Below are positions 1,122 to 23,439 of a stretch of DNA of 64,000 nucleotides, in pieces. This DNA is from Candidatus Aenigmatarchaeota archaeon (GTDB taxonomy: Archaea; Aenigmatarchaeota; Aenigmatarchaeia; CG10238-14; SCSR01). Made by a program: the position numbers and the translations under genes. How positions within the stretch are numbered: position 1 is the stretch's first letter; each line of letters starts with the position of its first letter. The stretch covers positions 29,464 through 93,463 of the forward strand of contig JAWBWS010000003.1 of assembly GCA_038999725.1 (NCBI GenBank), in the 5' to 3' direction. The notes under the pieces are model-generated. The model saw nothing but the letters and a program-made list of their open reading frames with translations. It was not told the DNA's origin and searched no databases.

Positions 1122-1205
1122 CGCCCAGGGTGGGATTTGAACCCACACGGTCTTTCGACCACCAGCTCTCCAGGCTGGCGCCATACCAGATTAGGCGACC
1201 TGGGC
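1122..1205 (-). tRNA. tRNA-Ser (anticodon GGA) with long variable arm
   Basis: The reverse complement folds as a cloverleaf: acceptor GCCCAGG/CCTGGGC, anticodon stem CCAGC/GCTGG with loop CTGGAGA, a long variable arm GGTCGAAAGACC, T-arm GTGGG-TTCAAAT-CCCAC, discriminator G. Confidence 0.85.
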
Positions 1206-2954: not shown

Positions 2955-3233
2955 ATGAAAAGAGAAGAAATATTAGAAATAACAAAAATAAGTTCAAAAG
3001 GTCAAATTGTTTTACCTAAGAATATAAGAAAAGAATTAAATATCAAAAAAGGTAGTTTGTTTGCCCTTACAAAAAAAGGTAAATTAATAATATTAAAGAA
3101 AATCGAAAAACCAATTTTGAAAGAAGACCTGATTGCTCTTAAGAATGTAGAAAAAGCTTGGAGAGAAATAGAAAGTGGAAAATTTAGAAAAGCTAGTAGA
3201 GAAGATTTCTTGAAAGAGTTGACCAAATGGTAA
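2955..3233 (+). CDS. AbrB/SpoVT (swapped-hairpin) family antitoxin
   Basis: SSKGQIVLPKNIRKELNIKKGSLF is the AbrB/MazE-type DNA-binding motif; 92 aa; overlaps the downstream toxin gene by 7 nt. Confidence 0.7.
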   Translation: MKREEILEITKISSKGQIVLPKNIRKELNIKKGSLFALTKKGKLIILKKIEKPILKEDLIALKNVEKAWREIESGKFRKASREDFLKELTKW

Positions 3234-3484
3234 TAAAAGAGGTAATTTGGACTCAAAAATTTGAGGATGAGTTCAAGAAAGTTAAAGATACTGCTATTAA
3301 AGAAAGGATTAAAAAACAAATTGAAAAAATTATTAAAAATCCTGATGTTGGCAAACCTTTGAGGTTCGAGTTAAAGGGGGAGAGAGCAGTTTACATTAAG
3401 TCCTACAGACTTATTTATTCTGCCATCGGAGATAAGTTATACCTTCTAAGATTTGAGCATAGAAAAAAAGTCTATAGAATTTGA
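3227..3484 (+). CDS. RelE/ParE-family type II toxin
   Basis: 85 aa, basic, with C-terminal YRLIYSAIGDKLYLLRFEHRKKVY typical of RelE/ParE; follows the antitoxin in the same orientation. Confidence 0.65.
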   Translation: MVIKEVIWTQKFEDEFKKVKDTAIKERIKKQIEKIIKNPDVGKPLRFELKGERAVYIKSYRLIYSAIGDKLYLLRFEHRKKVYRI

Positions 3485-3572: not shown

Positions 3573-4175
3573 ATGAGTTACACTTTAGAGATAATTCATG
3601 ACCAAATAGAAAAGATATTATATCCAGAAAAATTTACGCACCACAAAAATCCTCCTCCTAAATTGATGCCCTCTCAGTTGAAAGTTTTGAGAGAATTTTA
3701 TAATCAGTGTAATGCTGATGGTCTTAGCCCAAAAACTACTTTGAATTATTTGAGACATCTTAGAACATTAGGTTTATGTGTAAAAAAGCCTTTTGAGAAG
3801 ATGACAAAAGATAATTTGGTTTATTTTCTGAATGAAAGACAGAGACCAGATTTTCTAAGGAAGTTGGGAGTAAGATTTCCTTTACTAAAAGAAAAGCAAG
3901 TTTCAGCTAGAACTATGAATGAAATTAAAGTTGTGTTGAAAAAGTTTTACAAGTGGTACTACAAGACAGATGGTTGGGGAGTTTATCCTGAAGTAGTTAG
4001 TTGGATTAAAACCCCTAGAAAATTGAATATTAGTCGAAAATTACCAGAAGAGTTGCTAACAAAAGAGGATATCAAAGCAATGGCTGATAAAGCTAGCAAT
4101 CCAAGAGATAGAGCATTAATAATGGTTTTGTATGAGTCAGATGTAGAGTTGGAGAGGTTGTTTCTCTTAAAATGA
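3573..4175 (+). pseudogene. tyrosine recombinase/integrase, 3'-truncated (N-terminal core-binding domain plus the first helix of the catalytic domain only)
   Basis: SAM-like N-domain (LKVLREFYNQCNADGLSPKTTLNYLRHLRTL). The ORF ends right after NPRDRALIMVLYESDVELERLFLLK, the first conserved Arg region of the catalytic domain. The R...HxxR...Y remainder is absent and the next gene starts 25 nt later. Confidence 0.6.
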
Positions 4176-4199: not shown

Positions 4200-7100
4200 T
4201 TACTTGGTCCATAACTTCTTATACCAAAGAATAAACATTATAACCCCTACAACTGAAACAAATATCACAGCAACTCCTGTTGGTGAAACTATAAATGTAA
4301 CAAGTCCTCTTAATATCCTCGTGCCAGTTGGTATCCATGGTGTTGGTGTTGTGGCAGGTGCTGGACAATCTGCTGGGCAGTTGATGTAATCTTCTCCAGA
4401 TTCACATACACCATTACCGCAAACTACTTTCTTTTCTGGTGGTTTAACTTCACAAGTTTGTTTTTCTATTGGTTTGTTTTTTGTTGTTCCACATTTGTTT
4501 AAATCAGTACAAATTCTTATTTGCGTTCCATTAACACATTCAGACCATTCAGTACAACTCCAATTTTCCTTACATTCTTCTAGCACTATAGGCGGCGCTC
4601 TCCCTCTACCTCCATATTGTAGCGTTGGAGTTGGTACCGGTGCTCCAAACAAACCAAAAATACTAAAGTGAGAAGTGTTAGCCCAGACATAATTATTTGT
4701 CGTGTCCACACCCCCATATGGTGGGTTGTAGGGAATCCAAGTTTTGGCTGTGTTATTATAGTAGTAAATTCTTAACGATTCTTCTATAATTCCTGCTGCT
4801 GTAACTTCAGCATCTGTGTAATAAATTTTAATTAGTGCCCATGATAAACTGCTAGTGAGATTGGGATCTACCTTAATTTCTATGTACTTGTTCAAAGCAG
4901 TCACACCAATATTAGCAGTTCCAGGGTTCTGAGTATATGAGACAATATTTACAGAGGCATTCGATATATTTTGGTTTGTCATTATTTCTAAACTTGTATT
5001 GGTAGTTTGAATTGCATTTATGATAGTTGTAACATTTGCAATTGCTGAAACTGAATTATTTGTATAGTTTCCAGTTGCTCCAACAATCAATGAAAGAGGT
5101 AAGCTATAGTTTCCAGCATTTGAAACTATATCCAAATTGCCATCAAAACTACCTGGGGTTGTACCAGAGAATGTAATTGTTATATTCGTTGAAAATCTTG
5201 GTGGTACATTAAAGCTATTTGGTAAAATAGAGATGTAGGGTGCGATTGATCCTAAAACAGTTATCGTTCCTCTCGCATTTGTATTTCCATAACTTTTAAT
5301 TGAAAGAGTTTGATTTGAGAAGCTACCCACATTTAAAGATACAAGATAAGATGTAGTAGACAAATTAATTAGTGGTGTTGAAAATACTGAAAAGTTTGTG
5401 AGACTTGAAGTAGAGTATTGTTTGGTATCGGTCTCCACATAATCAAATGTCACATTAACTGTATAATTCCCAGGCGGATTTATACCTGTGTTCCATTTGA
5501 CTTGGAAGGGAAGAACAGATACCTCGTTTATTTGCAAATCGTTCAAAACGATAATTGGGCTATCTGAAATAAATAAAGTTAAATTACCCATTACTAGTCT
5601 GTCTTCGGTGTTGTTAATAACTCCGGTGATTATAACATCTTCGTAGGCAGAGTAATTGGCTTTGTTGGTGGAGAGTGAAATAGTTATGGGCGCTTTTACA
5701 ACCTCAACAGTCACCCAGTAAAATCTAGGTTCTTCTATTAAAAGTTGGTGTGGAGGTTCACCTATCCACCATTTGAATGATGTGTAGACATCTCCATAAT
5801 ACAAATTGGGGATTGTGTTTTGTGGTACAGAAATTGTTAAATTAATTAGTTGTTTGTCACTTATATTTGAGAAAGCAGTAGCTGGAGTTATTGTAAGCCA
5901 ATTCCACACAGTATACCTCCGTTGAGAGATTATTAAATTTATCTGATCTTCACCAGCAGGTATATCATAACCTAAGACAACTACTGTCCAATTACCTGTT
6001 TTACCTCTAACCCCTGTCTGTAACCAAACCTCTTTACCATAAATTGGGTAACCTAAATAGAAACAACTATCCTCATAAGAGCAATAGGCCGATCCGGTAG
6101 ATGCAGCCAATTTGTTTTCTGGATCGAATAAATAAAGTCCTAATCCAGTAGTTATATTTTTCCAGCTAAGTTTTAATATAAGGTAATCCGAAATAGAGCC
6201 ATTAACGAAAAATGTGTAATAATTGTACTTTTTATCTTTGATTTCATCAGTTATCAATTGACTATGTTGCTCGACTAGTCCATAAGGTGTTAAATCGACA
6301 TCCATACTGGTATTAGGAAGTAAGTTCCAAAGTGTTAATTGAATAGTTTTTACTTCTCCTGGTTGAAGTATATGATACTCAGAACGTGGTAAAATAGATG
6401 CTTTTGGAAGTACTACATTTAGTGTAAAAGAAGCATTTTCTTCTGTCAGAGATGGAGCGTAAATTCCTGCAGTCCACGTACCATTAATTGGGTTGAAGAC
6501 ATAGATGCTTGACCATAACCAATCGTACATAGGAGAAGACTTTAATATCTTACCATCTGGACTAAAAAGGTATAATTCTAAAATAGGAATTTCCCCACCT
6601 CTAGGAGGATTTAAATCAACCTCAAGATAGTCAGCACCTTCAGGAACATTAAAGGAATAGAATTTCATTTCATGAGAAGTGATATTATCAGAAATATTAG
6701 CTTTATTAAGGTATAAACTCAGTCTTTGACTAACTCCAACTAAAACGGGAATAATTATATCGTCATTTACAATAATTCTTCCCTGATATTCGCCTTTACT
6801 ATCATTCGGTATATCTATTCCCATTGTTGGCCAATTATTTTCACTAAACCAAGGCCAATCTACAAACCCACTTTTCTCTAATCTTCCGAAAAATTCTTGA
6901 GTACCATTTACATACCAACCATATACTTCTCCTCTCCATTCTCCTACTACCGGACTTCGAATTGTTATTTCTTCATGAGTAACACCAAGACCCCATGAAG
7001 AGCATGTAACCAACTTTCCATCGGGATCATATAAACACAAATCCAAATCATTACTTGGATCATCCCAATCGATACTGATAGTAAACCCAATAATAGAAGA

Positions 7101-8978
7101 GTCTACATCAAAGGTATAATTATAATATTCATGATTTCCAATCTCCCCATTGAACAAACTAATATCAATAACTGATGAAAATGTTTCCTCAACTAAGCTC
7201 GTAACTTCGATGTTTGATACGTTAAATGTTTGTGTTTTACTACTTCCTGCTTCTACTATACCTATATTCCATGCTGAGGGCATAATCCATTTATTGTTCT
7301 TAGCAGCTTGGTAAGCCTTGTAAGCATCTATTCTACCACCACCTTGAACTGTTGGTTTTTGTTTAAGATCTTTGGCGGTATTCATTAATATGGCTTTAAC
7401 TTGTTCTGGTGTCAAATTGGGGTATGATTGTAGAATTAGTGCAACTACACCAGCTACATGTGGAGTCGCCATACTAGTTCCACTTGCCGAAGTATAATAC
7501 TCGCTTATAGGCCAACCCATGTCAGTATTATTTGCTCTTGCAGAAATTATCCATACACCTGGTGCAACAATGTCTGGCTTAATTCTTTCATCTGTAGTTG
7601 GACCTTCACTGCTAAACCATGCTATGTTATCAAAATTATCAGTAGCACCAACTGTTATGGCTTTCTTGGCACAACCAGGAGCTAAAATTGCTCTAACATC
7701 ATAAGAATTGCCAGCTGCAACAATTACATTAACACCTCTATCTACAGCAGAATCAACAGCTAAAGACATAGGATCTGAGCCATCACAGATAGGAACCCTC
7801 CCACCTAAACTCATACTTATTATTTTAGCTCCAGAATCAACAGCCCATTCTATACCTGCTATTATATCAGACTCAAAGCCATGTCCATAATCATCAAGAA
7901 CTTTTCCGTTTAATAATTGAACCCCTTCAGGGGCAACTCCTTTAAAAATATCTGCTTGATTATCCCAATCAACATCTAAAGCAATTGTAATGTTATTTTC
8001 ATTTTCCTCAATATCTTCTAACATTTGGTATGCTTCACTATAATAATAATTAGATATGAAATGCTCTCCAACAGAGGCGACGGCCTGGTCATAAATTGTG
8101 TTGAAATCACCGTCCTCATCTAAGTAAACAAGATAATTTGTTTCGCTATTAGTCACAAGAACATAATAATTCTTTACTTCTAGCCAATCAACCCACCAAC
8201 CAAAATTTAAAAGTAAGTCGATTCTACCTACATGATAAATACCATCGTTATCACTAGGTAGATTAGCTAAATTTAAAGATGAACAATTTTCAACTGTGCA
8301 AATAGTTGATGTGTCAACAACTCTCTTGGATCCATTGCCACTACCTGCTATTATAGCAGCAACATGTGTACCATGACCAAAATAGTCATTAGGATCTAAT
8401 TTACCATCAAATAATGTAAAATCTTTTTCAGCTACAATTTTTCCTTCTAATCCAGGATGATTTTTATCAATTCCTGTATCTAGTACAGCTACTTTAACTT
8501 CAGTTACAGATCTAGTTTCATTCCAAACTAATGGTGCGTTAATTAGTGGTGCACTCTTGAAAAGTTGAGGTGTTATATTAAATGCCTGATATTTTTTCAG
8601 AAGTAGTTCGTTCAAATCAAAATTTTCTTCAGAAAGTGCATATACTTTTTTATCAAGATAAACCTTTTTTACATTAGTAGAGTTTGATAAATTTAAAAGT
8701 ATTTCAAGAGAAACATTAGCTGCAAATGCGTTAATTAAATGATATTTATACTTTGGTTGAACACCTACCATATCTACTTTAGCAGATGGTTGCAAAATAA
8801 CAATGACCGGAACCTTCGATGGAATTTCATTTTGAATAAAATCAATAATGGAAGGGTCTACTCTCTTTGATGAAACTAACTCTTGTATCAGATGTTGGGA
8901 AGATATAGCAAAAACATTGTCGATAAAAAATAGAAAACAGAAAAATACTATCACACTTAATAACAACCCATTCTTCAT
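4200..8978 (-). CDS. secreted S8 subtilisin-like serine protease with a very large sequon-rich C-terminal extension, Cys-rich modules and a C-terminal TM anchor
   Basis: Signal peptide MKNGLLLSVIVFFCFLFFIDNVFA; catalytic triad motifs VAVLDTGID, HGTHVAAIIAG and SGTSMATPHVAGVVALI; more than forty N-x-S/T sequons; Cys-rich CGNGVCESGEDYINCPADC; C-terminal hydrophobic helix plus a YKKLWTK tail. Confidence 0.85.
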   Translation of the reverse strand: MKNGLLLSVIVFFCFLFFIDNVFAISSQHLIQELVSSKRVDPSIIDFIQNEIPSKVPVIVILQPSAKVDMVGVQPKYKYHLINAFAANVSLEILLNLSNSTNVKKVYLDKKVYALSEENFDLNELLLKKYQAFNITPQLFKSAPLINAPLVWNETRSVTEVKVAVLDTGIDKNHPGLEGKIVAEKDFTLFDGKLDPNDYFGHGTHVAAIIAGSGNGSKRVVDTSTICTVENCSSLNLANLPSDNDGIYHVGRIDLLLNFGWWVDWLEVKNYYVLVTNSETNYLVYLDEDGDFNTIYDQAVASVGEHFISNYYYSEAYQMLEDIEENENNITIALDVDWDNQADIFKGVAPEGVQLLNGKVLDDYGHGFESDIIAGIEWAVDSGAKIISMSLGGRVPICDGSDPMSLAVDSAVDRGVNVIVAAGNSYDVRAILAPGCAKKAITVGATDNFDNIAWFSSEGPTTDERIKPDIVAPGVWIISARANNTDMGWPISEYYTSASGTSMATPHVAGVVALILQSYPNLTPEQVKAILMNTAKDLKQKPTVQGGGRIDAYKAYQAAKNNKWIMPSAWNIGIVEAGSSKTQTFNVSNIEVTSLVEETFSSVIDISLFNGEIGNHEYYNYTFDVDSSIIGFTISIDWDDPSNDLDLCLYDPDGKLVTCSSWGLGVTHEEITIRSPVVGEWRGEVYGWYVNGTQEFFGRLEKSGFVDWPWFSENNWPTMGIDIPNDSKGEYQGRIIVNDDIIIPVLVGVSQRLSLYLNKANISDNITSHEMKFYSFNVPEGADYLEVDLNPPRGGEIPILELYLFSPDGKILKSSPMYDWLWSSIYVFNPINGTWTAGIYAPSLTEENASFTLNVVLPKASILPRSEYHILQPGEVKTIQLTLWNLLPNTSMDVDLTPYGLVEQHSQLITDEIKDKKYNYYTFFVNGSISDYLILKLSWKNITTGLGLYLFDPENKLAASTGSAYCSYEDSCFYLGYPIYGKEVWLQTGVRGKTGNWTVVVLGYDIPAGEDQINLIISQRRYTVWNWLTITPATAFSNISDKQLINLTISVPQNTIPNLYYGDVYTSFKWWIGEPPHQLLIEEPRFYWVTVEVVKAPITISLSTNKANYSAYEDVIITGVINNTEDRLVMGNLTLFISDSPIIVLNDLQINEVSVLPFQVKWNTGINPPGNYTVNVTFDYVETDTKQYSTSSLTNFSVFSTPLINLSTTSYLVSLNVGSFSNQTLSIKSYGNTNARGTITVLGSIAPYISILPNSFNVPPRFSTNITITFSGTTPGSFDGNLDIVSNAGNYSLPLSLIVGATGNYTNNSVSAIANVTTIINAIQTTNTSLEIMTNQNISNASVNIVSYTQNPGTANIGVTALNKYIEIKVDPNLTSSLSWALIKIYYTDAEVTAAGIIEESLRIYYYNNTAKTWIPYNPPYGGVDTTNNYVWANTSHFSIFGLFGAPVPTPTLQYGGRGRAPPIVLEECKENWSCTEWSECVNGTQIRICTDLNKCGTTKNKPIEKQTCEVKPPEKKVVCGNGVCESGEDYINCPADCPAPATTPTPWIPTGTRILRGLVTFIVSPTGVAVIFVSVVGVIMFILWYKKLWTK

Positions 8979-9125
8979 TTCACCACTTGAACTACTTAAT
9001 TTTTATTTAAGAGATTTAGAGATTTAAATTTTACCAATTTAATACTGCTGACGGCTTCGCCTAGTGATGCTTTGGGATTAATAAGTGTAATTGATAAAGT
9101 ATTTCCGAAAGCTGGGATTTGTAGC

Positions 9126-10397
9126 TCAAAACAGCATGAATTTCCTCTTAATTAAAATTAGGGCTAAAATTATTGCTAACAAGATTAAACCCACCACTAC
9201 TACTGGGTTTGATAAAGTATCGAGTATGATTTCTCTTGTGGACTTAATGGGAATTGTGGTTGTTGTGGTTGGGAGCGTGGTTGTTGTGGTTGGGAGCGTG
9301 GTTGTTGTGGTTGGGAGCGTGGTTGTTGTGGTTGGGAGCGTGGTTGTTGTTGGTATGTAGGGTGGTATGGTGGTTGTGGTAGTAGTTGGGGCAGGTGAAC
9401 TTCCAAACATGCCAAACAAGCTGAAGCTTGTCACATTAGCATATACAAAATTGTTGACTGTATCCACACATCCAAAAGTTGGGCATGGTAAAGCATTCCA
9501 ACTTGTTCCATTCCACTTGTACAATCTTAAAGTGCTTTCATCCAGTCCCGCAACTTCATCATGGGTATAGCTGACATTAATGATAACATAAGCCAAGTTA
9601 TTTCCCAGCTCGGGACTCACCCTTATGTCCAAGAATTTAACTGGATGTAGACCCGGAATTCCAGGTGTTATGTTGCCTGTGAATGTTGTCACATTCACAT
9701 TTACATCTGATACAGTAGCATTTGTAACTATTCCCAAACTTGTGTCAGTCTCAGCAGCTAGAAGGATAAGTGTGAATATATTTTCAAGTATTTCTTGAAT
9801 TGTTTTTGAATCCTTTCCTTTAAGTCCTTCTGGCTCTTCTGGAGGCAGGATTTCAATTGTTTTATTTTTGCTGAATTTGTCCCCATTGGCATAAACTGTT
9901 AAACTAATCTTATAGGTGGTTGGTGTTATTGGGACTTTCCACCTCACATTAAATCTTAAAGTGGCAGAAGCACTCCCATACCCGTAACCATAGCCATAGC
10001 CCCAATAGTATGGTGTGCCTTCCCAATACCCATACCCGTAACCATAGCCATAGCCCATTGGTGGAACAAATTCTGTTGTAACATTAATTCCTTGACAGTG
10101 AGTTGTTTCTCCATCACTTAACTCTATATTACAACTAATTCCTGTGCCAGCAATTGGCTCAATTTTTAGTGTAACATTAGCTATAGGAATTAACTCTCCC
10201 GCATTTGTGTTTATTTCTATTGGGAAGCTTATGGTTTCCCCTCCTCTTGCTTCTGAGGGGGATTTTATATCAATCACAAAAGCTGCAAGCGGTTTTGAAG
10301 AAAGAATCAGGAAAATAAGAATAGAAGAGATGAGGATAGAAAATATTCTCTTCTTAAAAAAATTCTTGTCAAGCTCGTAAGATTTTATAAACTTCAC
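9126..10397 (-). CDS. cell-surface protein with GY repeats, a (L/I)PTTTTT repeat linker and a C-terminal TM anchor
   Basis: N-terminal hydrophobic segment; GYGYGYGYGYWEGTPYYWGYGYGYGYG; a 70-aa domain homologous to the protease C-terminal domain (YANVTSFSLFGMFG vs WANTSHFSIFGLFGA); TLPTTTTT x4; TM plus KRKFMLF. Confidence 0.65.
   Translation of the reverse strand: MKFIKSYELDKNFFKKRIFSILISSILIFLILSSKPLAAFVIDIKSPSEARGGETISFPIEINTNAGELIPIANVTLKIEPIAGTGISCNIELSDGETTHCQGINVTTEFVPPMGYGYGYGYGYWEGTPYYWGYGYGYGYGSASATLRFNVRWKVPITPTTYKISLTVYANGDKFSKNKTIEILPPEEPEGLKGKDSKTIQEILENIFTLILLAAETDTSLGIVTNATVSDVNVNVTTFTGNITPGIPGLHPVKFLDIRVSPELGNNLAYVIINVSYTHDEVAGLDESTLRLYKWNGTSWNALPCPTFGCVDTVNNFVYANVTSFSLFGMFGSSPAPTTTTTTIPPYIPTTTTLPTTTTTLPTTTTTLPTTTTTLPTTTTTIPIKSTREIILDTLSNPVVVVGLILLAIILALILIKRKFMLF
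9256..9360. repeat. about 5 tandem copies of a 21-nt unit (gtggttgttgtggttgggagc) encoding the LPTTTTT linker on the minus strand
   Basis: Direct reading of the sequence; it lies inside CDS 9126..10397. Confidence 0.85.
9975..10056. repeat. duplicated 26-nt block (catacccgtaaccatagccatagccc) encoding GYGYGYGY
   Basis: Two copies about 52 nt apart inside CDS 9126..10397. Confidence 0.7.
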
Positions 10398-10417: not shown

Positions 10418-11656
10418 TTGAAGAACTACCTTAAATACTTTATTGGAAGAATGATAGCCCAAGCCTTTATTACAACCTCAGCCGTTTTTCTTGGAATGGG
10501 TCTAAACTATTTGTTCCATTTCTTCATGACAAGGCTTTTGAGTCCAAGCTTATATGGAGAGATTTCAATTTTAATCGGGTTTTTAACCATCATATTAGTA
10601 CCCACAGGTAGTATACAAACTGTTTTAACAAGAGAAATTGCAAAGTTAGAGAAAAGGGGGAATGAAAGAGTTATAGTCGGTTTGATAAGGAGATATTTGA
10701 GAAGCGCTTTTCTTGTAGGTTTAACTATTGCTTTGGTTTTATTCTCTTCTTCCTATATGATTGCCAAGATTTTCAAGGACGACCAACTCATTTCATCTAT
10801 TCAGTTACTGTCTCTTGGCATTCCATTCCTGTTTTTACTTCCTATATTCAAGGCATATTACCAAGGAAGGGAGAAGGTTTTTACTCTCTCAGGAATTTTG
10901 GCTGTTGAACCTTTGATAAAATTGGTCTTTGGTGTAGGCCTGGTTTTGATTGGTTTTGGATTATCTGGAGCAACACTTTCCCTAATCGCTGGTCCCATCA
11001 TTTTGGTTTTCCTTCTTCTTCCAAGAACAATTAAAATGACAAGTTTCCCCAACTATTCCATCAAATTGAAAAAATCCTTTTTCCTCATTCTTCTCACTTC
11101 AATTTCCTTAATGATTTTCTTTTATCTTGATTTGTTCTTTGTGAGATATTATCTTGGTTCAGAGCAAGCAGGCTATTACAATGTGGCTTCAATAACTTCT
11201 AAAGTTTTGTCTTACGCAACTGGTGGAGTTGTTTTGGTTTTTCTTCCAAAATCTTCCAAGCTATCCATTAAAAAGGAGAGGGGAAAAATTAAAACTTTGT
11301 TGCTTAAGTCAATCGCATTTATTACCCCAATCTTCATAGTTTTTGTGCTCTTCCCAAAGGAAATCATCTCAATTTTCTACACAGAAAAATATCTTTTTGC
11401 CTTAGGTTCCTTTACAATCCTAACCTTTGGGATGTTCATCTTTTCAATTTTCCAAATCCTTCTCTCCTTCTTTTGGTCTCAAAATTCCGAAAGGTTTCCA
11501 TTGGTTCTTTCCATTACAGCAACCTTAATTGATTTCCTACTTTTGAATTATTTCATTCCAATTAAAGGAATTGAAGGAGCAGCCATTGCAACCACACTCT
11601 CTTCCCTGGTTTTTCTCCTTCCCTCAATCTTTGTTGTTAGGGGTATGCTGATTTAA
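10418..11656 (+). CDS. polysaccharide/oligosaccharide flippase (MOP/Wzx-like), multi-pass membrane protein
   Basis: 412 aa with about 12 hydrophobic helices; its size and topology fit Wzx/MATE-like flippases; sits in a glycosyltransferase context. Confidence 0.55.
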   Translation: MKNYLKYFIGRMIAQAFITTSAVFLGMGLNYLFHFFMTRLLSPSLYGEISILIGFLTIILVPTGSIQTVLTREIAKLEKRGNERVIVGLIRRYLRSAFLVGLTIALVLFSSSYMIAKIFKDDQLISSIQLLSLGIPFLFLLPIFKAYYQGREKVFTLSGILAVEPLIKLVFGVGLVLIGFGLSGATLSLIAGPIILVFLLLPRTIKMTSFPNYSIKLKKSFFLILLTSISLMIFFYLDLFFVRYYLGSEQAGYYNVASITSKVLSYATGGVVLVFLPKSSKLSIKKERGKIKTLLLKSIAFITPIFIVFVLFPKEIISIFYTEKYLFALGSFTILTFGMFIFSIFQILLSFFWSQNSERFPLVLSITATLIDFLLLNYFIPIKGIEGAAIATTLSSLVFLLPSIFVVRGMLI

Positions 11657-13097
11657 AGAAGTAGATGTTGCCTTTCAAATTTACCAAATTTTCATTTTGG
11701 CATTTTACTGGGGAATAAACCAAAGAAATGTTGTTTTCCACCAAAAAGCTTGTGTTGGTGCAGTTCTGCTTAAAAAATTTGTAGGCATTATCCACAAGCT
11801 CAAGATATTTTTCATCTGGACCAAAAGGCATCACAGAGTAAACTCTTCTTTCAGCTATTGTTGCAAAAGCTCTTGCTTTCCATGGATCTAGCAGAACTAT
11901 CGTATCTTCTCTCGTATTTTCCTTAATCCATAGAAAGTTTTCATAATCTTCATCGTCAATCAAATAATAGTAAGGAGTTTTCAAGTTTCTTTCAATTGCA
12001 AGGAAAGAGGTTGCAACCAGGGAAATTAAAAGCAAAGCTGAACCGAAATTCTTGAACGGTTTTTCCATTTTTAGGAGTTTGGTGTAGCCAAAGCTTGCTA
12101 TTATTGACATGAGCAAGAACAAGGGAATGTAAGTCCTTTGGTAAGGGATCAACCAGTTCAAGTTTAGCCTGACGAAAAGGAAGATGTTGAGGGTTAAAGT
12201 TAAAGAAGTGAGAAGCAAGGCCCAAATCTCTTTGCTTTTTGTTTTTGCTAGAAAATAAAATCCTAAAATGAAAGATCCTGTCGGCAAGAAGCCATAAAGA
12301 GATGGGATTTCCCTCAGGTAGAACCAAAAGTTGAACTGAACCGCTTTTATTCCTTTTGTTTGAATCTCTGGGATGTAGTTTGGCAAGGAGAACAAAATCG
12401 AAGCTATTAAAACGGATAAAATTTCTTTTGCTTTTTGCTTGTTTTTTAAATTGAGCAAGAGGTAAAATCCAAGGATTGTTAATAAAACCATTGCTGTCGG
12501 TGGATGTGTATAAAGGATGAAGGTTGTTATGGCGAATAAAGCTAAATGGTTGTAGATGGGTTTGAGGTTTGTGAGTTCAAAAGCAAAGAGAAGAGCCAGG
12601 GGGATGAAGATCAAACTTAAATTTATTGGAACCAAAAACACAGGCCCACCTATTGTTACATTACTTGGAACCAAAGCTATCAATAAAGCTGAAATCAAAG
12701 CCTCCTTTTTGCCAAAAATTTTTGAAGTGAAATAAAAAACCGAAAGAATTGATAGAAAGTGGAAAAGAATTGGGAGGAAAACCCATTGTTTTACACTTAG
12801 GTTAAAAAATTTTTGGATGAAAGCTAAAGTTAAGTGCCAACCTCTTTCCAAACCTAATTCAAATGGCTTGCCAGAATACCAATCTATTTTTTGGTTTGAG
12901 GCTATCATTTTTGCCACAGAAATGTGAAACCATTCGTCTACATGCAAAGGGTAAGGGTAGTTCAAGTGGGGGTAAAAGGTTAGGAAAGAGGCTAAGAAAA
13001 GGATGAAAATCAAGCAAGCTATTTCCTTATTTTCAATTTTCTCTCTTCTCTTAGATATTCTATTATTAGGCATGCTACACCAACAACCAATAGCCAA
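11637..13097 (-). CDS. GT-C fold membrane glycosyltransferase-like protein (PMT/ArnT-like), putative
   Basis: Multi-TM protein with an acidic DE-type motif (HVDEWFH) in the first extracytoplasmic loop region, plus a C-terminal soluble domain. Confidence 0.4.
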   Translation of the reverse strand: MAIGCWCSMPNNRISKRREKIENKEIACLIFILFLASFLTFYPHLNYPYPLHVDEWFHISVAKMIASNQKIDWYSGKPFELGLERGWHLTLAFIQKFFNLSVKQWVFLPILFHFLSILSVFYFTSKIFGKKEALISALLIALVPSNVTIGGPVFLVPINLSLIFIPLALLFAFELTNLKPIYNHLALFAITTFILYTHPPTAMVLLTILGFYLLLNLKNKQKAKEILSVLIASILFSLPNYIPEIQTKGIKAVQFNFWFYLREIPSLYGFLPTGSFILGFYFLAKTKSKEIWALLLTSLTLTLNIFLFVRLNLNWLIPYQRTYIPLFLLMSIIASFGYTKLLKMEKPFKNFGSALLLISLVATSFLAIERNLKTPYYYLIDDEDYENFLWIKENTREDTIVLLDPWKARAFATIAERRVYSVMPFGPDEKYLELVDNAYKFFKQNCTNTSFLVENNISLVYSPVKCQNENLVNLKGNIYFFKSAYP

Positions 13098-13381
13098 TAG
13101 GTATAAATTGCTAATTGGTTTGCTAAAACTTCATTTTTGTAAAATGCCAAAACAATTGCTGCTAAAAAAAGTATCAGCAAAGCATAGGCTACAGGAATTC
13201 TTCCATCAAATTTGAAGAAGGTAAAAATTGGAATTAAGGCAATGAAAGACAAGAAAGTTGGCATGTCTTGAGATTTGAAAATGAAGTGGGATAAAAAAAT
13301 GGAAAAAACCACTAAAATGTAAGGAAGTTGTAATTTGGGGTCAGCCATTTTCTTTTTGATTTTTTTGGTCAAAGTGCCCAT
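13019..13381 (-). CDS. small 3-4 TM membrane protein (GtrA/DUF2304-like size class), hypothetical
   Basis: 120 aa and hydrophobic; sandwiched between two GT-C-like genes. Confidence 0.35.
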   Translation of the reverse strand: MGTLTKKIKKKMADPKLQLPYILVVFSIFLSHFIFKSQDMPTFLSFIALIPIFTFFKFDGRIPVAYALLILFLAAIVLAFYKNEVLANQLAIYTYWLLVVGVACLIIEYLREERKLKIRK

Positions 13382-16300
13382 TTTTTAGACCTTTTCTTTA
13401 AAATTTTTGGTAGAAACAATTTTTTAAAACTGATGTTTTTGCCTTTTTTCCAATCATAGATTAAGTAACCAATGCAAGCTATGAATGTTATACCGGAAAT
13501 CACTAAACCAATCTCAAACCACTCTTGAGGTTTATATCTTATTTCTATTTCATATTCTCCAGTCTTATTTATCCAGAAGCCGTTTATAACTCCATACAAA
13601 GGTATGGAGTGGTATTCTACCGTTTTTCCATTCTCCTTTATTCTTGCAACCCACAAAGGATCATAACTTTCAGCAAAGCTCAGCATGAATGGCTTAGAAG
13701 CATTCACTTGGACTTTCCAGAGGGTTGGGTCGATTTTTTGATAGCTGAGGACTTGAGCTGGAGTTTCGTTCACTTTAAATAAATCTTCTATTTTTTCATC
13801 TGAAGTGTTGGATTCTACCGAATATATCCAAGCTACATCAAGATAAGTTAACGGATATCCGTAAATTGTAACATTTTTTACCCAAACTATATTTGGAATG
13901 GGTTGCTTAGTTTCATGGCCGTGCCATATTTGTAACTGAATATACGCAACGGAAGTGTTTTTAGGCTTATACTCGTAGTTTATTTCCTTCCAGTCAAATG
14001 TTCCTTCTCCTATTCCTCCAGCATAAACACCACCAATATACTGCTTCGAAGAGTTGTATTCAAATATTTTGAAATGGACGCTTTGCCCATTCACTGCTTT
14101 GACAAAAAAGTCAAATTTATATTTCACCCCATATTTTGCTGGAATTAAAGGCGAGTTAATTGTTTTCCACCCCCAAGTTGAATTATAAAGTTCTGTTCTG
14201 AGAGCTTTTTCTTTTTCATCCCAGAAAACTTTGTATATTTGGCTTTCTTTGGTGTATTGTTTCCATTCTTCCACTTCTTCTTCATAAAAGTTCCAAGTAA
14301 ATGGTTGTAGAGTTGTGTCTGGCTCTATTTGAATTTTGTGTGGCCCTTTTTCTAAATAAATTGGCCCAAAATAGGTAAAGTTGTTGGAAGTAATTGAAAA
14401 GCTTTGATTATCAATTCTTATTTTTAAAGCTCCATACAAGTTTATGGCAAATCTGTAGAAGCCATTCTTAACAAATTCAAATTCTCGCCAGGCTTTTCCA
14501 CTTGGCGTTATGACCAAAAATTCTCCATTACTTGCTTTACCGTACTTTTCTTTCTCAGCATTTTCCCTGTAAAAATCACTCTCGCCTTCAAAGAGGTAAA
14601 TTATAGTTTTATTCCTCAACATCTCTTCAACTTCTTTTTCTTTTCTAGCTAGTTCATCACTTGTAACCAGAGCAAACAAATTGATAGCATTGAAACCTTT
14701 AATGTTCCTCAAGATGAGTTTGTGCTTACCTTTCTCCAAATAAAATTCTCCCAAATCTCCCCAAACAAATTTGTTTAATTGTTCTAAAGTGTTGAGTGAA
14801 ATCTCTTTGTTGTCTAAGAAAATTTTTATTGATCCTCCTTTTTGATTTTTAAAGTATCTTATGAGTAAATGATAATTTTCAGTCTTTTCTAGCTTAAAAT
14901 TTATTTCTAGGTCATTTGACTCTGTAAATTTAGATAGATCGTAGAGTTTAACATAATCTAGCCAATAATATGAGTTGGTTTGATTGTTTTGCCAAACCCA
15001 AAACTGTATCTTTATATATTTAGAGTCAGAAGGTATTAAAATTGTAGAGGAGAATTCCTTCCAATCAAATGTTTCATCTTGAGTAATAAAAACAAAATCA
15101 ACTTTTATTTCTTCTTTCTTCTCGTTAAAGTAAATTATCTTTGAATGAACTCCTTTAGAATCTTTACCGGATATTAAAACTTTACACTGATACCAATTGT
15201 CCGGTTTTATTGGCAAATAGTCAGTAGAAATAACTTTCCATCCCCATTCATCACCTTTTTTAATTTCAACTTGTAGGCTATAATTATCATCCTTTGATTT
15301 GGTTGAACTTGTAATATTCAGCACAAGAGGGCTCAAATTTGTAAAGTTTTGTAGAAATTTAGAATCGAAATTATAAATTAGATCATCATCTGTAGGTACT
15401 ATCTTCTCTTTTAACTTAGAAGGTGCCCATGTGAAAACCAATCCTTCACCATAATCTGATTGCCAGTTTTCTATTCCAAATTGTTCTAGGTAAGGATGCC
15501 AGCCCCCATGAAGAGGGTCAGAAGTTGATGCTCTTGACCATAGCTTTGACGGGTTGTGGCGATATGTAGAGTCGAATGTTTTTATCAAGAAAGAATTTTT
15601 GGAAAAGATATTAGAATAAAAATCTGGATTAATTTCTAATTCTGTGGCCTCATTCTCATTCATTCCTGTTAAAACTGACAAAGAATTATTAAGCAAAGAT
15701 AACGAGCCCAATAATTTATAATCAAAATCTTTTGATGATGCTATTTTATTTTTAATGTAGATATTCTTTATTTCGTCTCTTTCTGGCAAATATATGTTAA
15801 TCCCTTCTTTCGATTCTGGATAAATATAATAAATTTTTGGGTTTTCGATTTCTAGATTTGTGATTAAAGCATCTGCTCCAGTCAAATAAGAAATATAATA
15901 AATTGTTTTTTCATCACCTTTTTTGAAAGAATGTTTTAGATATCTACTCAAATCATTTGGAAGATTTATGTAAGGTTTTCCAGTATGATGCGCTTTGAAA
16001 TTTCCTTGATAATTAGAAAGTAAAACTATGGATTTGTTATAGGGTGCTCTATCATAATGTTCTCTATCTTCGAAATAATAACCTTTTCTAAGAATCCCGT
16101 CCAAATCACCTGTAAATCTCTGCCATCCGATAATTAAAGATGATAAAATTATAATAATGCATAAAATTATTCCAATTTTTTTAAATTTCCTCATTCTAAA
16201 AATCCAAGAAAGCAAAGAAAAAATGCAAAGTGAATAACCTAAAACTACTAACGATCCAAAATAGCCAGGAACTCTAAACATCCAACCAATAGAGGGGTGG

Positions 16301-17379
16301 GTTGAAAATAATAGAAACTCATAAAATCTAGAAAAAATAGGATTAAAGTTGGTAATTCCTCTCCATAGAAAAATTCCCAATAATAAATTTGAGCTACCAA
16401 CCACCACCAAGAATTTTTCTTCTCTACTATATCTATTGAATAAAAGTATAGAAACCATCGCTAAAATAGGAATCAAGAAAAGTATAATATTAAAAATGCT
16501 TTCTGGAATAAATGGAAATGGCTTTAATTGTAGATATGGCCACCATGATGCCTTTAAAGTTAAAATGTCAGCAGGTTTATAAGCAGATGAAAACATATAC
16601 GTTGCTTCATAAGATAGCATATAGGAGGGACTAATTTTAGAGATGGGACCAATTGCTGGCAAAAACCAATAAAAATTAAAGAGTAGTAAAAAAATAGAAA
16701 TAAAAATATATTTTTTAATAATTTCTTTCAAAAAAGAAATAGTCCCTCCATAGAATATTATATACAAACTTGTAGTGATAGATAACAAAATAAAGATAAA
16801 TATAATATATCTGAAAATTGGAGTAATTGATAACGTAATTAACAAACACAAAAATAATTTTGATTTTAAATTTTTACTTCTTAAAAAATAAAGTGTAGCT
16901 ACAATTATTGTTGGGAGAAGCGAGTAAGATATTACATAGGTGTTAGGAGGTGAAAATGCTTGTATGGTATATGGATTAATAGAAAATAAAAAAGCAAAAA
17001 CAATAGATAATAAAAAAATGTTTTTATTATCGAATCCAAACAGATTTTCAATTAAATAAAAAAGAGACAGATATGGTATTAAAAATATACATATAAAATA
17101 AAAGATACAATATAATCTTGAAGATATTTCTATTTTAGAGGATAGTGAAGGAATGGTTGCTAACCACAATCTTGCTATTCCTTCATAAAATTGATATGAG
17201 CCATAGTTTGACCAAGTAAAAAAATATTGTAAAATCAATTGTGGAAAGGGTGGAATTATTACATCTCTATGTTCTACAATAATGGAAGTATTTTCGAAAA
17301 GTAAGTAACTTATACTCAAAATTCCAGTAAGCAGACTGAGCAATAAAGCAATAAAATGATATTTGTATGTTTTTGACAT
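13369..17379 (-). CDS. giant (1336 aa) polytopic membrane protein with a large extracytoplasmic beta-rich domain containing two homologous carbohydrate-binding-like repeats and a C-terminal TM; putative GT-C type glycosyltransferase (AftD/DUF3367-like architecture)
   Basis: The N-terminal ~450 aa are multi-TM. An internal repeat is visible: WKVISTDYLPIKPDNWYQCKVLISGKDSKGVHSKIIYF vs WKTINSPLIPAKYGVKYKFDFFVKAVNGQSVHFKIFEY. C-terminal TM IGLVISGITFIACIGYLIY. Confidence 0.45.
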   Translation of the reverse strand: MSKTYKYHFIALLLSLLTGILSISYLLFENTSIIVEHRDVIIPPFPQLILQYFFTWSNYGSYQFYEGIARLWLATIPSLSSKIEISSRLYCIFYFICIFLIPYLSLFYLIENLFGFDNKNIFLLSIVFAFLFSINPYTIQAFSPPNTYVISYSLLPTIIVATLYFLRSKNLKSKLFLCLLITLSITPIFRYIIFIFILLSITTSLYIIFYGGTISFLKEIIKKYIFISIFLLLFNFYWFLPAIGPISKISPSYMLSYEATYMFSSAYKPADILTLKASWWPYLQLKPFPFIPESIFNIILFLIPILAMVSILLFNRYSREEKFLVVVGSSNLLLGIFLWRGITNFNPIFSRFYEFLLFSTHPSIGWMFRVPGYFGSLVVLGYSLCIFSLLSWIFRMRKFKKIGIILCIIIILSSLIIGWQRFTGDLDGILRKGYYFEDREHYDRAPYNKSIVLLSNYQGNFKAHHTGKPYINLPNDLSRYLKHSFKKGDEKTIYYISYLTGADALITNLEIENPKIYYIYPESKEGINIYLPERDEIKNIYIKNKIASSKDFDYKLLGSLSLLNNSLSVLTGMNENEATELEINPDFYSNIFSKNSFLIKTFDSTYRHNPSKLWSRASTSDPLHGGWHPYLEQFGIENWQSDYGEGLVFTWAPSKLKEKIVPTDDDLIYNFDSKFLQNFTNLSPLVLNITSSTKSKDDNYSLQVEIKKGDEWGWKVISTDYLPIKPDNWYQCKVLISGKDSKGVHSKIIYFNEKKEEIKVDFVFITQDETFDWKEFSSTILIPSDSKYIKIQFWVWQNNQTNSYYWLDYVKLYDLSKFTESNDLEINFKLEKTENYHLLIRYFKNQKGGSIKIFLDNKEISLNTLEQLNKFVWGDLGEFYLEKGKHKLILRNIKGFNAINLFALVTSDELARKEKEVEEMLRNKTIIYLFEGESDFYRENAEKEKYGKASNGEFLVITPSGKAWREFEFVKNGFYRFAINLYGALKIRIDNQSFSITSNNFTYFGPIYLEKGPHKIQIEPDTTLQPFTWNFYEEEVEEWKQYTKESQIYKVFWDEKEKALRTELYNSTWGWKTINSPLIPAKYGVKYKFDFFVKAVNGQSVHFKIFEYNSSKQYIGGVYAGGIGEGTFDWKEINYEYKPKNTSVAYIQLQIWHGHETKQPIPNIVWVKNVTIYGYPLTYLDVAWIYSVESNTSDEKIEDLFKVNETPAQVLSYQKIDPTLWKVQVNASKPFMLSFAESYDPLWVARIKENGKTVEYHSIPLYGVINGFWINKTGEYEIEIRYKPQEWFEIGLVISGITFIACIGYLIYDWKKGKNISFKKLFLPKILKKRSKKWAL

Positions 17380-17381
17380 AA

Positions 17382-18404
17382 CTACACTTTTATTTTTGAT
17401 TTAAACTTTTTTTTCATTAGACGAAAAGATTTGCTAAGAGGTATAATTAAATTTTTCTCTCTCGGTTCTTGTAATCTTTTTTTTCTTATCTCTTTTGGAA
17501 TTTGACGGAAAAAGGCCAAAATACCATTGATTATATTTAAGCAATTTCGTGGATTCTTATATAATACTATATTTATCATAGCCTCGAAAAGAGTAAAAAT
17601 CAAAGAAATAGGAATATATTTAATTGATTCTACTGGTGTATAATTTCTAAATAATGTAATTAATTTGTTTCTGATAAACAACGATTGATAAAAGTTTACA
17701 TCTATTTTTTTCTTGTTTATAGTCCCTGATCTTATATGATATATAACCGATGTCGGTACAACGTAGCTTTTATATCCAATTTTGCGGGCCCTCCAACAAA
17801 AATCAACATCCTCATAGTACATAAAATAATCTTCATCAAAAAGGTATCCAACCTTTTGGATAACCTCTCTCTTTATGAACATTGATGCCCCCTCACAAAA
17901 GAAAACTTCAAAAGGATTCTTCAATAAGTGTTCAGGTATTACATCTATTGAGCTGAAAATGTTTCCAATAACATTCATAAAGCCAAATGTAATATCATAT
18001 TTATCTCTTTCAAAATAATTAAACATTATTGGTTGCGCAATACCTACATCCTTGTTTTTTTCTAAAAAATTAATCATATTCTTGAGCCAGTATCTATCCA
18101 CTTCTATATCATTACTTAGCAAAACTATATACTCACCCTTTGCTTTCTTTATACCTATATTGTTTGCTTTCGAGTATCCAACATTCTTCTCTAATTTAAT
18201 TATTTCAATTTTTATACGTTTTTTGTCAGAATGTTTATACACCATTTTTTTAAATAATTCATCGCTGTTATCTGAAGAGCCGTTATCAACAAAAATTATC
18301 TCATAATTTGGATAATCTAAATAAAAAAGCGACTTCCAAAGATTAGAATATTTTGCTCCATTAAAATTTAATAAAATTATACTTACTAGGGGCATTTTGT
18401 TCAT
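17382..18404 (-). CDS. family 2 glycosyltransferase
   Basis: VSIILLNFNGAKY...EIIFVDNGSSDNS is the GT2 N-terminal signature. Confidence 0.8.
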   Translation of the reverse strand: MNKMPLVSIILLNFNGAKYSNLWKSLFYLDYPNYEIIFVDNGSSDNSDELFKKMVYKHSDKKRIKIEIIKLEKNVGYSKANNIGIKKAKGEYIVLLSNDIEVDRYWLKNMINFLEKNKDVGIAQPIMFNYFERDKYDITFGFMNVIGNIFSSIDVIPEHLLKNPFEVFFCEGASMFIKREVIQKVGYLFDEDYFMYYEDVDFCWRARKIGYKSYVVPTSVIYHIRSGTINKKKIDVNFYQSLFIRNKLITLFRNYTPVESIKYIPISLIFTLFEAMINIVLYKNPRNCLNIINGILAFFRQIPKEIRKKRLQEPREKNLIIPLSKSFRLMKKKFKSKIKV

Positions 18405-18407
18405 TTT

Positions 18408-18845
18408 CTACCACAACAAATTATTTTTATCTAAAAGTAACCAAGTTTTGGGTAGATCTTCTGATTTATTTATGTTGATATTTATACCATTAATAAATTC
18501 ACCATAAGCCATCCCATCTCCAGCAACTAATCCAATAGTAGTGTTAATTTCTTTTTCGTTACATGGTAATGTAATAGATGTCTTTTTAATATAATTAAAT
18601 ATTTTCTCAGTGAAAATATTTAAATAATTCTCTTTAGCTAACTCCTCTACTACTATAGTTTTTTCGAAAGACAATTTTATTAAATTTTGTAAATAATATA
18701 TGAATTTTTCTATTATGTAATGAATTGTAGGTTTGTCATAAAGTGGTAATAATGGTTTTGGTAAAATATAACCCGAGAATCCAATTCTACTTCCCATTCC
18801 AGTAGTAGGGATAACACCTTCTTTAATTTTACTTATCTTGGCCAT
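18408..18845 (-). CDS. degenerate paralog of a sugar-phosphate nucleotidyltransferase (internal ~120-aa deletion; probable pseudogene)
   Basis: The N-terminus (KIKEGVIPTTGMGSRIGFSGYILPKPLLPLYDKPTIHYIIE) and C-terminus (EKEINTTIGLVAGDGMAYGEFINGINININ) align with CDS 21004..21792, but the central domain is missing. Confidence 0.5.
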   Translation of the reverse strand: MAKISKIKEGVIPTTGMGSRIGFSGYILPKPLLPLYDKPTIHYIIEKFIYYLQNLIKLSFEKTIVVEELAKENYLNIFTEKIFNYIKKTSITLPCNEKEINTTIGLVAGDGMAYGEFINGINININKSEDLPKTWLLLDKNNLLW

Positions 18846-20939: not shown

Positions 20940-20963
20940 CCCCTCACCTTACTCACCAAATAT
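20935..20963. repeat. 29-bp exact direct repeat (copy 1) ttcatcccctcaccttactcaccaaatat
   Basis: Identical to 23411..23439. It contains the start codon and an SD-like GGTGAGGGG upstream of the downstream minus-strand gene. Confidence 0.9.
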
Positions 20964-21038
20964 AGAAAAGAGAGATTTCCATAGAGAAGAGAATCTACCT
21001 CCATTATAGTTTAGTAAAATAATACTCACTAAGGGCAT
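20949..21038 (-). pseudogene. 29-aa N-terminal remnant of a GT2 glycosyltransferase (MPLVSIILLNYNGGRFSSLWKSLFSIFGE*)
   Basis: Hand translation of the minus strand. It matches the N-terminus of GT2 17382..18404 (MNKMPLVSIILLNFNGAKYSNLWKSLF). Its start overlaps the 3' end of the nucleotidyltransferase gene and its stop lies inside the 29-bp repeat. Confidence 0.6.
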
Positions 21039-21792: not shown

Positions 21793-21814
21793 CTTTCCCC
21801 GCCTTTCTTAAATC

Positions 21815-23415: not shown

Positions 23416-23439
23416 CCCCTCACCTTACTCACCAAATAT
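23411..23439. repeat. 29-bp exact direct repeat (copy 2)
   Basis: Identical to 20935..20963. Here it encodes the C-terminus YLVSKVRG* of GT2 23412..24272 and the start of 22516..23415. Confidence 0.9.

Follow-up and report, generated by a model that had tools for sequence, protein, structure and literature searches.

The closest described counterparts of the element considered here are the Microbial Autoproteolysis INducing (MAIN) domains, for example that of B. subtilis YfkN, which are GAIN_B-like and widespread in bacteria and archaea (Brogan & Rudner, bioRxiv 10.64898/2026.05.12.724683, 13 May 2026). In MAIN proteins a signal peptide is followed by enzymatic or adhesion domains, the MAIN domain and a surface anchor, and the chain is cut between F and S of an HFS tripeptide, as located by Edman degradation; changing the S to A abolishes the cut and changing it to T restores it, and the fragments stay associated, the ectodomain being released by SDS or heat (bioRxiv 10.64898/2026.05.12.724683). 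The PSI-BLAST set (RefSeq Select) that defines the family includes methanogen, haloarchaeal and Bathyarchaeota proteins with the DPAM labels ZU5 or GPS, and Peptidase_S8 partners MAIN in 480 proteins; transmembrane (TM) anchoring appears there only as a ‘Notch transmembrane helix’ label in the DPAM tables, and DPANN, PGF-pre-PGF and archaeosortase are not mentioned (bioRxiv 10.64898/2026.05.12.724683). Here we describe a C-terminal domain shared by two adjacent surface proteins, a secreted S8 subtilase (WIN_A) and a smaller protein with GY repeats (WIN_B), encoded in 64,000 nucleotides of Candidatus Aenigmatarchaeota archaeon (GenBank assembly GCA_038999725.1, contig JAWBWS010000003.1, positions 29,464 to 93,463), the whole of which is called the window below. 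We propose that it is an autoproteolytic domain of the MAIN type, with a GAIN_B/ZU5 fold and carried on a membrane-anchored stalk, and give this model as a whole a probability of about 0.66; the shared module would then probably be a breakable joint for shedding the surface protease and not a new sorting signal.

Homology between the C-terminal regions of WIN_A (residues 1274-1446) and WIN_B (158-333) is far beyond chance in a BLASTP comparison (E=3e-25, 34% identity, 182 columns). A preliminary description of the locus had proposed such homology over about 70 amino acids (aa); the homology holds, but the shared region spans about 130-180 aa, roughly twice that length. WIN_A and WIN_B carry the only copies of the domain found by six-frame hmmsearch of the window. 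WIN_A, annotated by NCBI as ‘S8 family serine peptidase’, runs from a signal peptide through the S8 catalytic domain and several beta-sandwich domains to the MAIN-like domain, a Cys-rich stalk, a TM helix and a basic tail. It matches Peptidase_S8 (PF00082) above the Pfam cutoff (E=2.1e-56, 191.8 bits) and shows the Asp/His/Ser triad motifs of that family in its translation (DTGID, HGTHVA and GTSMATPHV), with weak matches to PPC and Inhibitor_I9 in the same scan. WIN_B, identical in sequence to family member P0063, has an N-terminal signal/TM segment, an Ig-like region with GY repeats, the MAIN-like domain, a Thr-rich stalk, a TM helix and a basic tail; the Pfam scan gave no family for it apart from low-complexity mucin-type matches. 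By hydropathy each protein ends in one TM helix and a short basic tail, as had been described, and the Thr/Pro-rich linker attributed to both is indeed present in WIN_B, but that of WIN_A consists mostly of two Cys-rich modules flanked by short Pro/Thr stretches. The order of signal peptide, ectodomains, shared domain and surface anchor is that of the MAIN proteins, with a TM helix as the anchor here and not LPXTG or SLH.

The AlphaFold2 model of the WIN_A domain is confident (predicted local distance difference test score, pLDDT, 85.3; predicted template modelling score, pTM, 0.81), and in a Foldseek comparison with the PDB the GAIN domain of BAI3 ranked highest (E=6.6e-4), with ankyrin ZU5 domains and the GAIN domain of CELSR1 next, folds that count as the classic self-cleaving sandwiches. 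From this model the domain is very probably a GAIN_B/ZU5-type beta-sandwich, the fold of MAIN domains; that it is instead a carbohydrate-binding or generic Ig-like beta-sandwich tethering the proteins to the glycan coat strikes us as a very faint prospect. Conservation within the family is highest at ...NYVWANTTHFSxFGxFG. Among 263 unique copies of the domain, S is found at the Ser position in 233 and T in 4, F at the residue before it in 219 and L in 23, and the His in 178. HFS accounts for 133, HLS for 15 and SFS, the third most common tripeptide, for 13 of the 188 motifs scored. HFS lies between strands 126-131 and 136-141 of the WIN_A domain model, and in both AlphaFold2 models (WIN_A domain and P0006) the tripeptide occupies the turn between the penultimate and last strands, which in model topology is the position at which GAIN domains are cut, in front of the buried Stachel strand.

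GAIN domains cleave at HL/T (the slash marks the scissile bond), PIDD, UNC5CL and Nup98 at HF/S, and NLRP1 and CARD8 at SF/S with the help of a distal His. WIN_A carries the H-X-(S/T) motif before its last beta-strand, and by analogy with these systems its cleavage is predicted and rather likely. WIN_B keeps the Ser of the motif; cleavage is uncertain here because the His is missing (SFS) and nothing in our data shows a distal one, and we regard it as doubtful. WIN_B has the same fold and the same Ser nucleophile but SFS instead of HFS; its cleavage may be inefficient or absent, and the protein may serve as a fixed stalk.

Several points weigh against the autoproteolytic reading. Cleavage fails in some eukaryotic GAIN domains although their motif is intact, the His is absent from 32% of the copies, WIN_B included, and HFS is equated with the GAIN cleavage site by topology, not by superposition. 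Profile comparison with Pfam and the PDB gave no link to ZU5, GPS or GAIN, and no direct sequence link to bacterial MAIN domains was found; assignment to MAIN rests for this reason on fold, motif and architecture. Profile searches from the shared domain reached only archaea and one bacterium of the candidate phyla radiation (CPR); a broadened profile of 24 sequences, sought as a bridge to bacterial MAIN, returned only 11 fragments, a Methanohalobium domain used as a stepping stone gave no matches, and tblastn against plasmids gave archaeal matches only. The Methanohalobium protein in question, WP_013195681 (propeptide, S8, ..., GPS), is the only, indirect tie between the WIN_A domain and the published MAIN set: it is listed in Table S3 of the preprint, is matched by the WIN_A domain in tblastn (E=1e-2), and carries, besides an NVNHFSTYGA domain, an Ig spacer, a TIGR04213 domain and a TM helix with KKR after it. 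The MAIN domains tested experimentally are bacterial only (bioRxiv 10.64898/2026.05.12.724683), and this one unreviewed preprint is the sole source for the family. A TG motif in the tails of the family, described below, and its specific association with the shared domain are also not explained by autoproteolysis.

The same fold might serve without any cut, only as a rigid stalk close to the membrane or as a domain for interaction, in the manner of the ankyrin ZU5 domain and some uncleaved GAIN domains. This we consider unlikely, since the F-S pair and the strand that follows it are the most conserved part of the family, the His is present in 68% of the copies (WIN_A included), and the identical HFS is the proven cleavage site of bacterial MAIN domains; structural needs alone would hardly account for a turn being so conserved.

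The domain belongs to a large family. An initial search gave 13 metagenomic proteins laid out like WIN_A and WIN_B, and profile A1, built from 11 domain copies and run against 1.84 billion cluster representatives (50% identity), matched 3,428 proteins at E<=1e-3, of which 1,346 reach E<=1e-10. The family is almost all archaeal and rich in DPANN: the GTDB representative genomes that carry it include Aenigmat-, Woese-, Nano-, Iain-, Micr- and Nanohalo-archaeota, together with Altiarchaeota, Methanosarcinales, Methanoperedens, Methanocellaceae, Thermococcus, Bathyarchaeota and one CPR bacterium. No Pfam model covers the shared domain, nor does any NCBIfam model, the match to TIGR04213 being below threshold. 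At least 160 of the 214 domain-bearing proteins examined repeat the architecture noted in the window (domain, linker, TM helix, basic tail), with a single TM helix and a linker of commonly about 50-240 residues. A likeness to archaeosortase-type C-terminal signals had also been noted, and it is a fair one, as a genuine PGF-CTERM is present at the C-terminus of two relatives from Methanosarcinales (L054 and L057; 25 and 31 bits, with the cutoff at 24.5). Altiarchaeota members (L007:1-1269, L012:2-4345 and L042:8561-10075, and the C-termini of L026 and L033) either have instead of the TM tail a module of about 50 aa with Cys plus helix (..PPC..V.L.EV..LI..W....V..LI.AW) or end in SGWNLISIPL, which suggests a different, non-membrane attachment in this lineage. 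With a TM helix in DPANN, PGF-CTERM in Methanosarcinales and Cys-plus-helix in Altiarchaeota, the domain therefore sits above whichever anchor the lineage uses, as in bacteria.

The domain profile matches some giant proteins many times over (P0028 of 5048 aa in 52 partial stretches, P0014 of 5419 aa in seven and P0015 of 6996 aa in five), so that the domain, or its C-terminal half, can be repeated many times within one chain. Separately, a Levybacteria (CPR) protein and one from Methanoperedens (the pair L059:9323-11227 and L063:2175-4085) are closely similar in sequence and have the same layout of A1-like domain, Gly linker, TIGR04213 and TM helix, a likeness that is likely to reflect transfer from archaea to bacteria.

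TIGR04213, the PGF-pre-PGF family, is the sole recurrent NCBIfam match, and identity with it was considered. WIN_B scores 15.5 bits against a cutoff of 28 and WIN_A gives no match, while 5 of 11 homologues match weakly (best E=2.7e-4). In proteins from Methanosarcinaceae, Methanoperedens and Levybacteria the A1 profile matches one domain (NYVWANVTHFS...) and the genuine TIGR04213 match (92-159 bits) is a second domain downstream, after a Gly-rich linker, which ends ...SFSPFAI; this tandem of A1-type domain and TIGR04213 is seen in L049, L051, L052, L059, L063 and WP_013195681. The scores below threshold and the true TIGR04213 downstream in the same proteins rule out that the shared domain is PGF-pre-PGF itself. 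The two are nevertheless related: hhalign aligned them over the C-terminal 64 columns only (probability 71%, E=3.8e-5), with the HFS of the shared domain against the xFS of TIGR04213 ...SFSPFAI, and the TIGR04213 copies in alignment A2 lack His at the aligned position. Because both occur in tandem and only their C-terminal halves are related, the shared domain is best described, from these alignments, as a distinct paralogue of TIGR04213, the two forming sister families and not one family. The preliminary description had allowed that the domain might turn out to be a known family with no sorting role; this is largely the outcome, because it appears to be a GAIN_B/ZU5 domain of the MAIN type and a distant paralogue of PGF-pre-PGF.

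The tails that follow the domain carry a motif of their own. In 75 of 155 non-redundant tails a TG pair is found at 22-42 residues ahead of the first cytoplasmic K/R, against 36.2±4.5 expected from composition-preserving shuffles (maximum 50 in 1,000); it is preceded by I or P in 52 of the 75 and followed by L, A or F. The best-conserved tail is xP[IL]TG[FL]xxF[VA][ST][SP]PxG, the TM helix and [YW]KKx[FW]IF[KR]K, from which WIN_A departs by a six-residue insertion (IPTG-TRILRG-LVTFIVSP) and WIN_B by TR instead of TG. On other C-terminally anchored proteins of the same loci the motif is rare (2 of 25; Fisher p=1.2e-4), and its correlation with the catalytic His within the family was not significant (p=0.09). 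The AlphaFold2 model of P0006 has a disordered stalk, a short helix at the TG segment, a break at SS/PSG and then the TM helix; that the TG segment might be an extra strand docked on the sandwich was dropped, a short helix being predicted instead.

Such tails could constitute a new C-terminal sorting signal, in which [I/P]TG, TM helix and basic tail are read by an archaeosortase-like or sortase-like transpeptidase in DPANN, the TM helix is removed and the protein is joined to lipid or an envelope polymer; the shared domain would be a ‘pre-signal’ domain, as PGF-pre-PGF is for PGF-CTERM. The excess of TG at a fixed distance from the TM helix, with I or P before it, speaks for this, as do the resemblance of PTGF to PGF and of the T-G pair to LPXTG, the true PGF-CTERM that follows the domain in Methanosarcinales, and the paralogy with TIGR04213. 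We consider it improbable all the same. When ten tails (those of WIN_A, WIN_B and eight related proteins) were scanned against NCBIfam at E<=10, no curated CTERM model reached its cutoff, the best being GG_III-CTERM at 19 (cutoff 22), Heimdall-CTERM at 16 (24) and PGF_CTERM at 8.1 (24.5), and the weak matches cover the TM part only; PGF, PEF and VPXXXP are absent from both window proteins, as had been remarked. The LPXTG signal (TIGR01167) scored 15.1 for WIN_B against a cutoff of 15.9 and aligned only with the TM part (profile positions 10-32), and only the T-G pair of LPXTG is conserved in the tails, with Pro at the LPXTG position in 13 of 75. TG is missing from WIN_B, its spacing from the TM helix differs among tails by about 15 residues, other anchored proteins of the same loci seldom carry the motif, and the cytoplasmic tail has its own conserved motif, which would be unexpected for a discarded peptide. 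The GAIN-like fold, moreover, already explains the domain itself.

The gene neighbourhoods point in the same direction. No archaeosortase, sortase or rhomboid was found among the polytopic membrane proteins of the window, and no exosortase, archaeosortase, sortase or rhomboid among 25 listed of the 31 Pfam families matched by 56 polytopic neighbours of the homologues. All-versus-all clustering of 1,097 open reading frames (ORFs) from 65 loci gave no gene family as a conserved neighbour, partners occurring in at most six loci; a processing enzyme as a conserved neighbour was not seen. The literature on DPANN sortases, DPANN archaeosortases and the function of PGF-pre-PGF yielded nothing specific. 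Of the anchoring or sorting module put forward in the preliminary description, the shared domain is thus better accounted for by its GAIN_B/ZU5 fold and conserved HFS, and what survives is the [I/P]TG motif in about half of the TM tails. Given the lack of a conserved neighbour and of any archaeosortase, sortase or rhomboid in these sets, and the conservation of the cytoplasmic tail itself, the tail is most likely a type-I anchor that is retained, in which the [I/P]TG...SP segment forms a short interfacial helix and a hinge.

Two side observations concern the same themes. The only membrane peptidase found in the window is a 7-TM protein with Peptidase_A24 (prepilin/preflagellin peptidase, E=2e-9; 46987-47856, minus strand), which is unrelated to C-terminal processing. 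Tails like PEF-CTERM (..LPEFN.. or ..VPEFSD.., then a TM helix and a basic tail) occur on neighbours without a MAIN-like domain (L041:4631-6448, L044:956-1591, L045:1121-1705 and L036:10972-12315), in Methanocellaceae loci and, unexpectedly, in a Nanoarchaeia metagenome-assembled genome.

In the mechanism that we envisage, WIN_A and WIN_B would be exported by Sec by way of the N-terminal signal peptide and held in the membrane as type-I proteins by the C-terminal TM helix, acting as a stop-transfer sequence, with its positive-inside tail. Heavy N-glycosylation and probable O-glycosylation of the Thr stalk would follow, and the stalk, disordered and either Thr/Pro-rich and probably glycosylated (WIN_B) or Cys-rich (WIN_A), would raise the domain off the membrane. 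Once the GAIN_B-like domain had folded, as the models support, analogy with MAIN and GAIN domains suggests that His1437 would activate Ser1439 for attack on the carbonyl of F1438; an N-O acyl shift followed by hydrolysis would break the chain at F1438/S1439 in the tight turn before the last beta-strand. That strand (SIFGLFG) would stay hydrogen-bonded in the sandwich after the cut, and the 1438-residue protease ectodomain would therefore be held only non-covalently on the stub of strand, stalk and TM helix, from which mechanical force or unfolding could release it. A further possibility is that the tail, with its [I/P]TG juxtamembrane helix, SP hinge, TM helix and cytoplasmic [YW]KKxFIF motif, forms the second half of a mechanosensing device. 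Force would remove the ectodomain at HF/S and expose a Stachel-like strand and stub, which either a transpeptidase that cuts at TG or an S2P- or Rce1-type intramembrane protease could recognize, and the cytoplasmic motif would pass the event into the cell, an archaeal counterpart in attached episymbionts of signalling by adhesion G-protein-coupled receptors (GPCRs), Notch or RsgI. This extension of the autoproteolytic model we hold to be highly unlikely.

N-X-S/T sequons are in excess in both WIN_A and WIN_B (45 in WIN_A against 18.4±3.8 expected, 2.4-fold; 9 in WIN_B against 4.5±1.8), and a surface-glycan gene cluster directly adjoins their genes (cluster region 10418-24272; Table 1), with flippase, GT-C-like and GT2 genes next to them and further ORFs beyond. 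From the sequon excess and this adjacency it is likely that these genes glycosylate WIN_A and WIN_B, and the Thr/Pro-rich stalk of WIN_B is probably O-glycosylated. GC content falls to 27-29% at window positions 16000-24000, against about 35-39% elsewhere. The WIN_B stalk carries a perfect 21-nt tandem repeat (4.5 copies at 9256-9350, LPTTTTT units; 100% matches in Tandem Repeats Finder), which suggests recent expansion or variable stalk length; an 89-aa plus-strand ORF at 9091-9360 is only the mirror image of this repeat. No family-model match was seen for the Cys-rich modules of the WIN_A stalk (4365-4574), modules of this type recurring in P0002, P0004, P0010, P0012 and P0013. The patterns CxENWSCxEWSxC...C and CGNGxCExGE..CPxDC are common in metagenomic archaeal surface proteins, with or without a MAIN-like domain.

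Table 1. Features of WIN_A, WIN_B and the adjoining glycan genes, in window coordinates
Feature	Position	Strand	Basis
WIN_A, secreted S8 subtilase, 1592 aa, MEM5829570.1	4200-8978	-	ORF and exact NCBI match
WIN_A N-terminal signal peptide, aa 1-24, MKNGLLLSVIVFFCFLFFIDNVFA	8907-8978	-	Hydrophobic segment at residue 1, read from sequence
WIN_A MAIN-like (GAIN_B/ZU5-fold) domain, aa 1311-1446	4641-5048	-	HMM-defined
WIN_A H1437-F1438-S1439, predicted autoproteolytic site, scissile bond F1438/S1439	4662-4670	-	Family conservation and turn before last beta-strand (SIFGLFG)
WIN_A stalk, two Cys-rich modules: CKENWSCTEWSEC...C, aa 1469-1509, and CGNGVCESGEDYINCPADC, aa 1520-1538	4365-4574	-	Sequence
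WIN_A juxtamembrane segment IPTGTRILRGLVTFIVSP, aa 1549-1566, PTG motif and ...TFIVSP hinge	4281-4334	-	Tail comparisons
WIN_A TM helix, aa 1567-1585, and basic cytoplasmic tail YKKLWTK, aa 1586-1592	4203-4280	-	Hydropathy
WIN_B, 423-aa surface protein, MEM5829571.1, annotated ‘hypothetical’	9126-10397	-	ORF and exact NCBI match
WIN_B GY (GYGYGY) repeats	9975-10055	-	Sequence
WIN_B MAIN-like domain, aa 206-333	9399-9782	-	BLASTP to WIN_A
WIN_B S324-F325-S326, cleavage-site equivalent without His, Ser nucleophile retained	9420-9428	-	Alignment
WIN_B Thr/Pro-rich stalk	9240-9398	-	Sequence
WIN_B juxtamembrane segment STREIILDTLSNP (TR where relatives have TG), TM helix aa 399-416, tail KRKFMLF	9129-9242	-	Hydropathy and tail comparison
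Wzx-like flippase	10418-11656	+	Pfam
PMT_2/GT-C-like protein	11637-13097	-	Pfam
1336-aa 10-TM protein with CBM_4_9	13369-17379	-	Pfam
GT2	17382-18404	-	Pfam

On the other side of the two genes lie a tRNA gene (1122-1205, minus strand), two small overlapping plus-strand ORFs that by eye resemble an AbrB-type antitoxin and RelE-type toxin pair (2955-3484), and a 200-aa plus-strand ORF with only the N-terminal SAM-like domain of a tyrosine integrase (3573-4175); these may mark the border of an integrated island.

Our verdict, at the odds of about two in three given above and on the strength of fold, motif and architecture, is that the shared domain belongs to the recently described MAIN/GAIN-like autoproteolytic kind, as a TM-anchored member that has expanded in DPANN. 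DPANN archaea are very small and live as episymbionts, dependent in their biology on host-cell contact. If the model is right, their surface enzymes and adhesins are mounted on a pre-cut joint that force can break, with the same fold as in animal adhesion GPCRs, and the very recent MAIN concept, tested in bacteria, extends to a large family of 3,428 clusters at 50% identity that has no Pfam or NCBIfam model. The long-uncharacterized PGF-pre-PGF domain would gain a structural and evolutionary context as a His-less paralogue, and the position of the domain just above any lineage’s anchor, whether TM helix, PGF-CTERM, LPXTG or SLH, would be explained. In practical terms, F1438/S1439 would be a site to expect in proteomics and to mutate when such proteases are expressed, and the [I/P]TG tail is a defined, testable motif.

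Compared with known systems, the shared domain resembles MAIN in its GAIN_B-like beta-sandwich, the HFS in the turn before the last strand, the order of domains and the frequent S8 partners. It differs from the tested MAIN domains, which are bacterial and have LPXTG/sortase, wall-binding or SLH anchors, in its DPANN host, its C-terminal TM helix anchor, a juxtamembrane region of the [I/P]TG type (a family motif) and a Cys-rich or Thr-rich stalk. The GAIN domains of adhesion GPCRs and polycystin-1 (BAI3 4dlo, CD97 9mqr, CELSR1 8vy2) have a GAIN_A helical subdomain, GPS cysteines and a 7TM receptor, all absent here where there is a single TM helix only, and share no sequence similarity with the domain detectable with hidden Markov models. 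ZU5/FIIND domains (HF/S in PIDD and UNC5CL, SF/S in NLRP1 and CARD8) serve cytosolic eukaryotic signalling, whereas the present domain is extracellular and archaeal. With the SEA/SEAL domains of mucins and clostridial RsgI it would share, as proposed here, the logic of self-cleavage in a beta-turn, non-covalently held fragments and force-dependent separation beside a membrane anchor, but their alpha/beta sandwich fold and G/SVVV motif are unrelated. TIGR04213 (PGF-pre-PGF) is likewise an archaeal, membrane-proximal domain of surface proteins and has a homologous C-terminal half, but is a separate domain without the His. Archaeal surface proteins that are PGF-CTERM/archaeosortase A substrates likewise end in a Thr-rich linker, a hydrophobic helix and a basic tail; the window proteins differ from them in having no PGF tripeptide, a longer hydrophobic region (juxtamembrane helix plus TM helix) and a conserved cytoplasmic tail, and no archaeosortase was seen in the window. 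Relative to the MAIN preprint, whose central idea has been public since May 2026, what is new here is the extension to DPANN, the link to PGF-pre-PGF and the TG tail.

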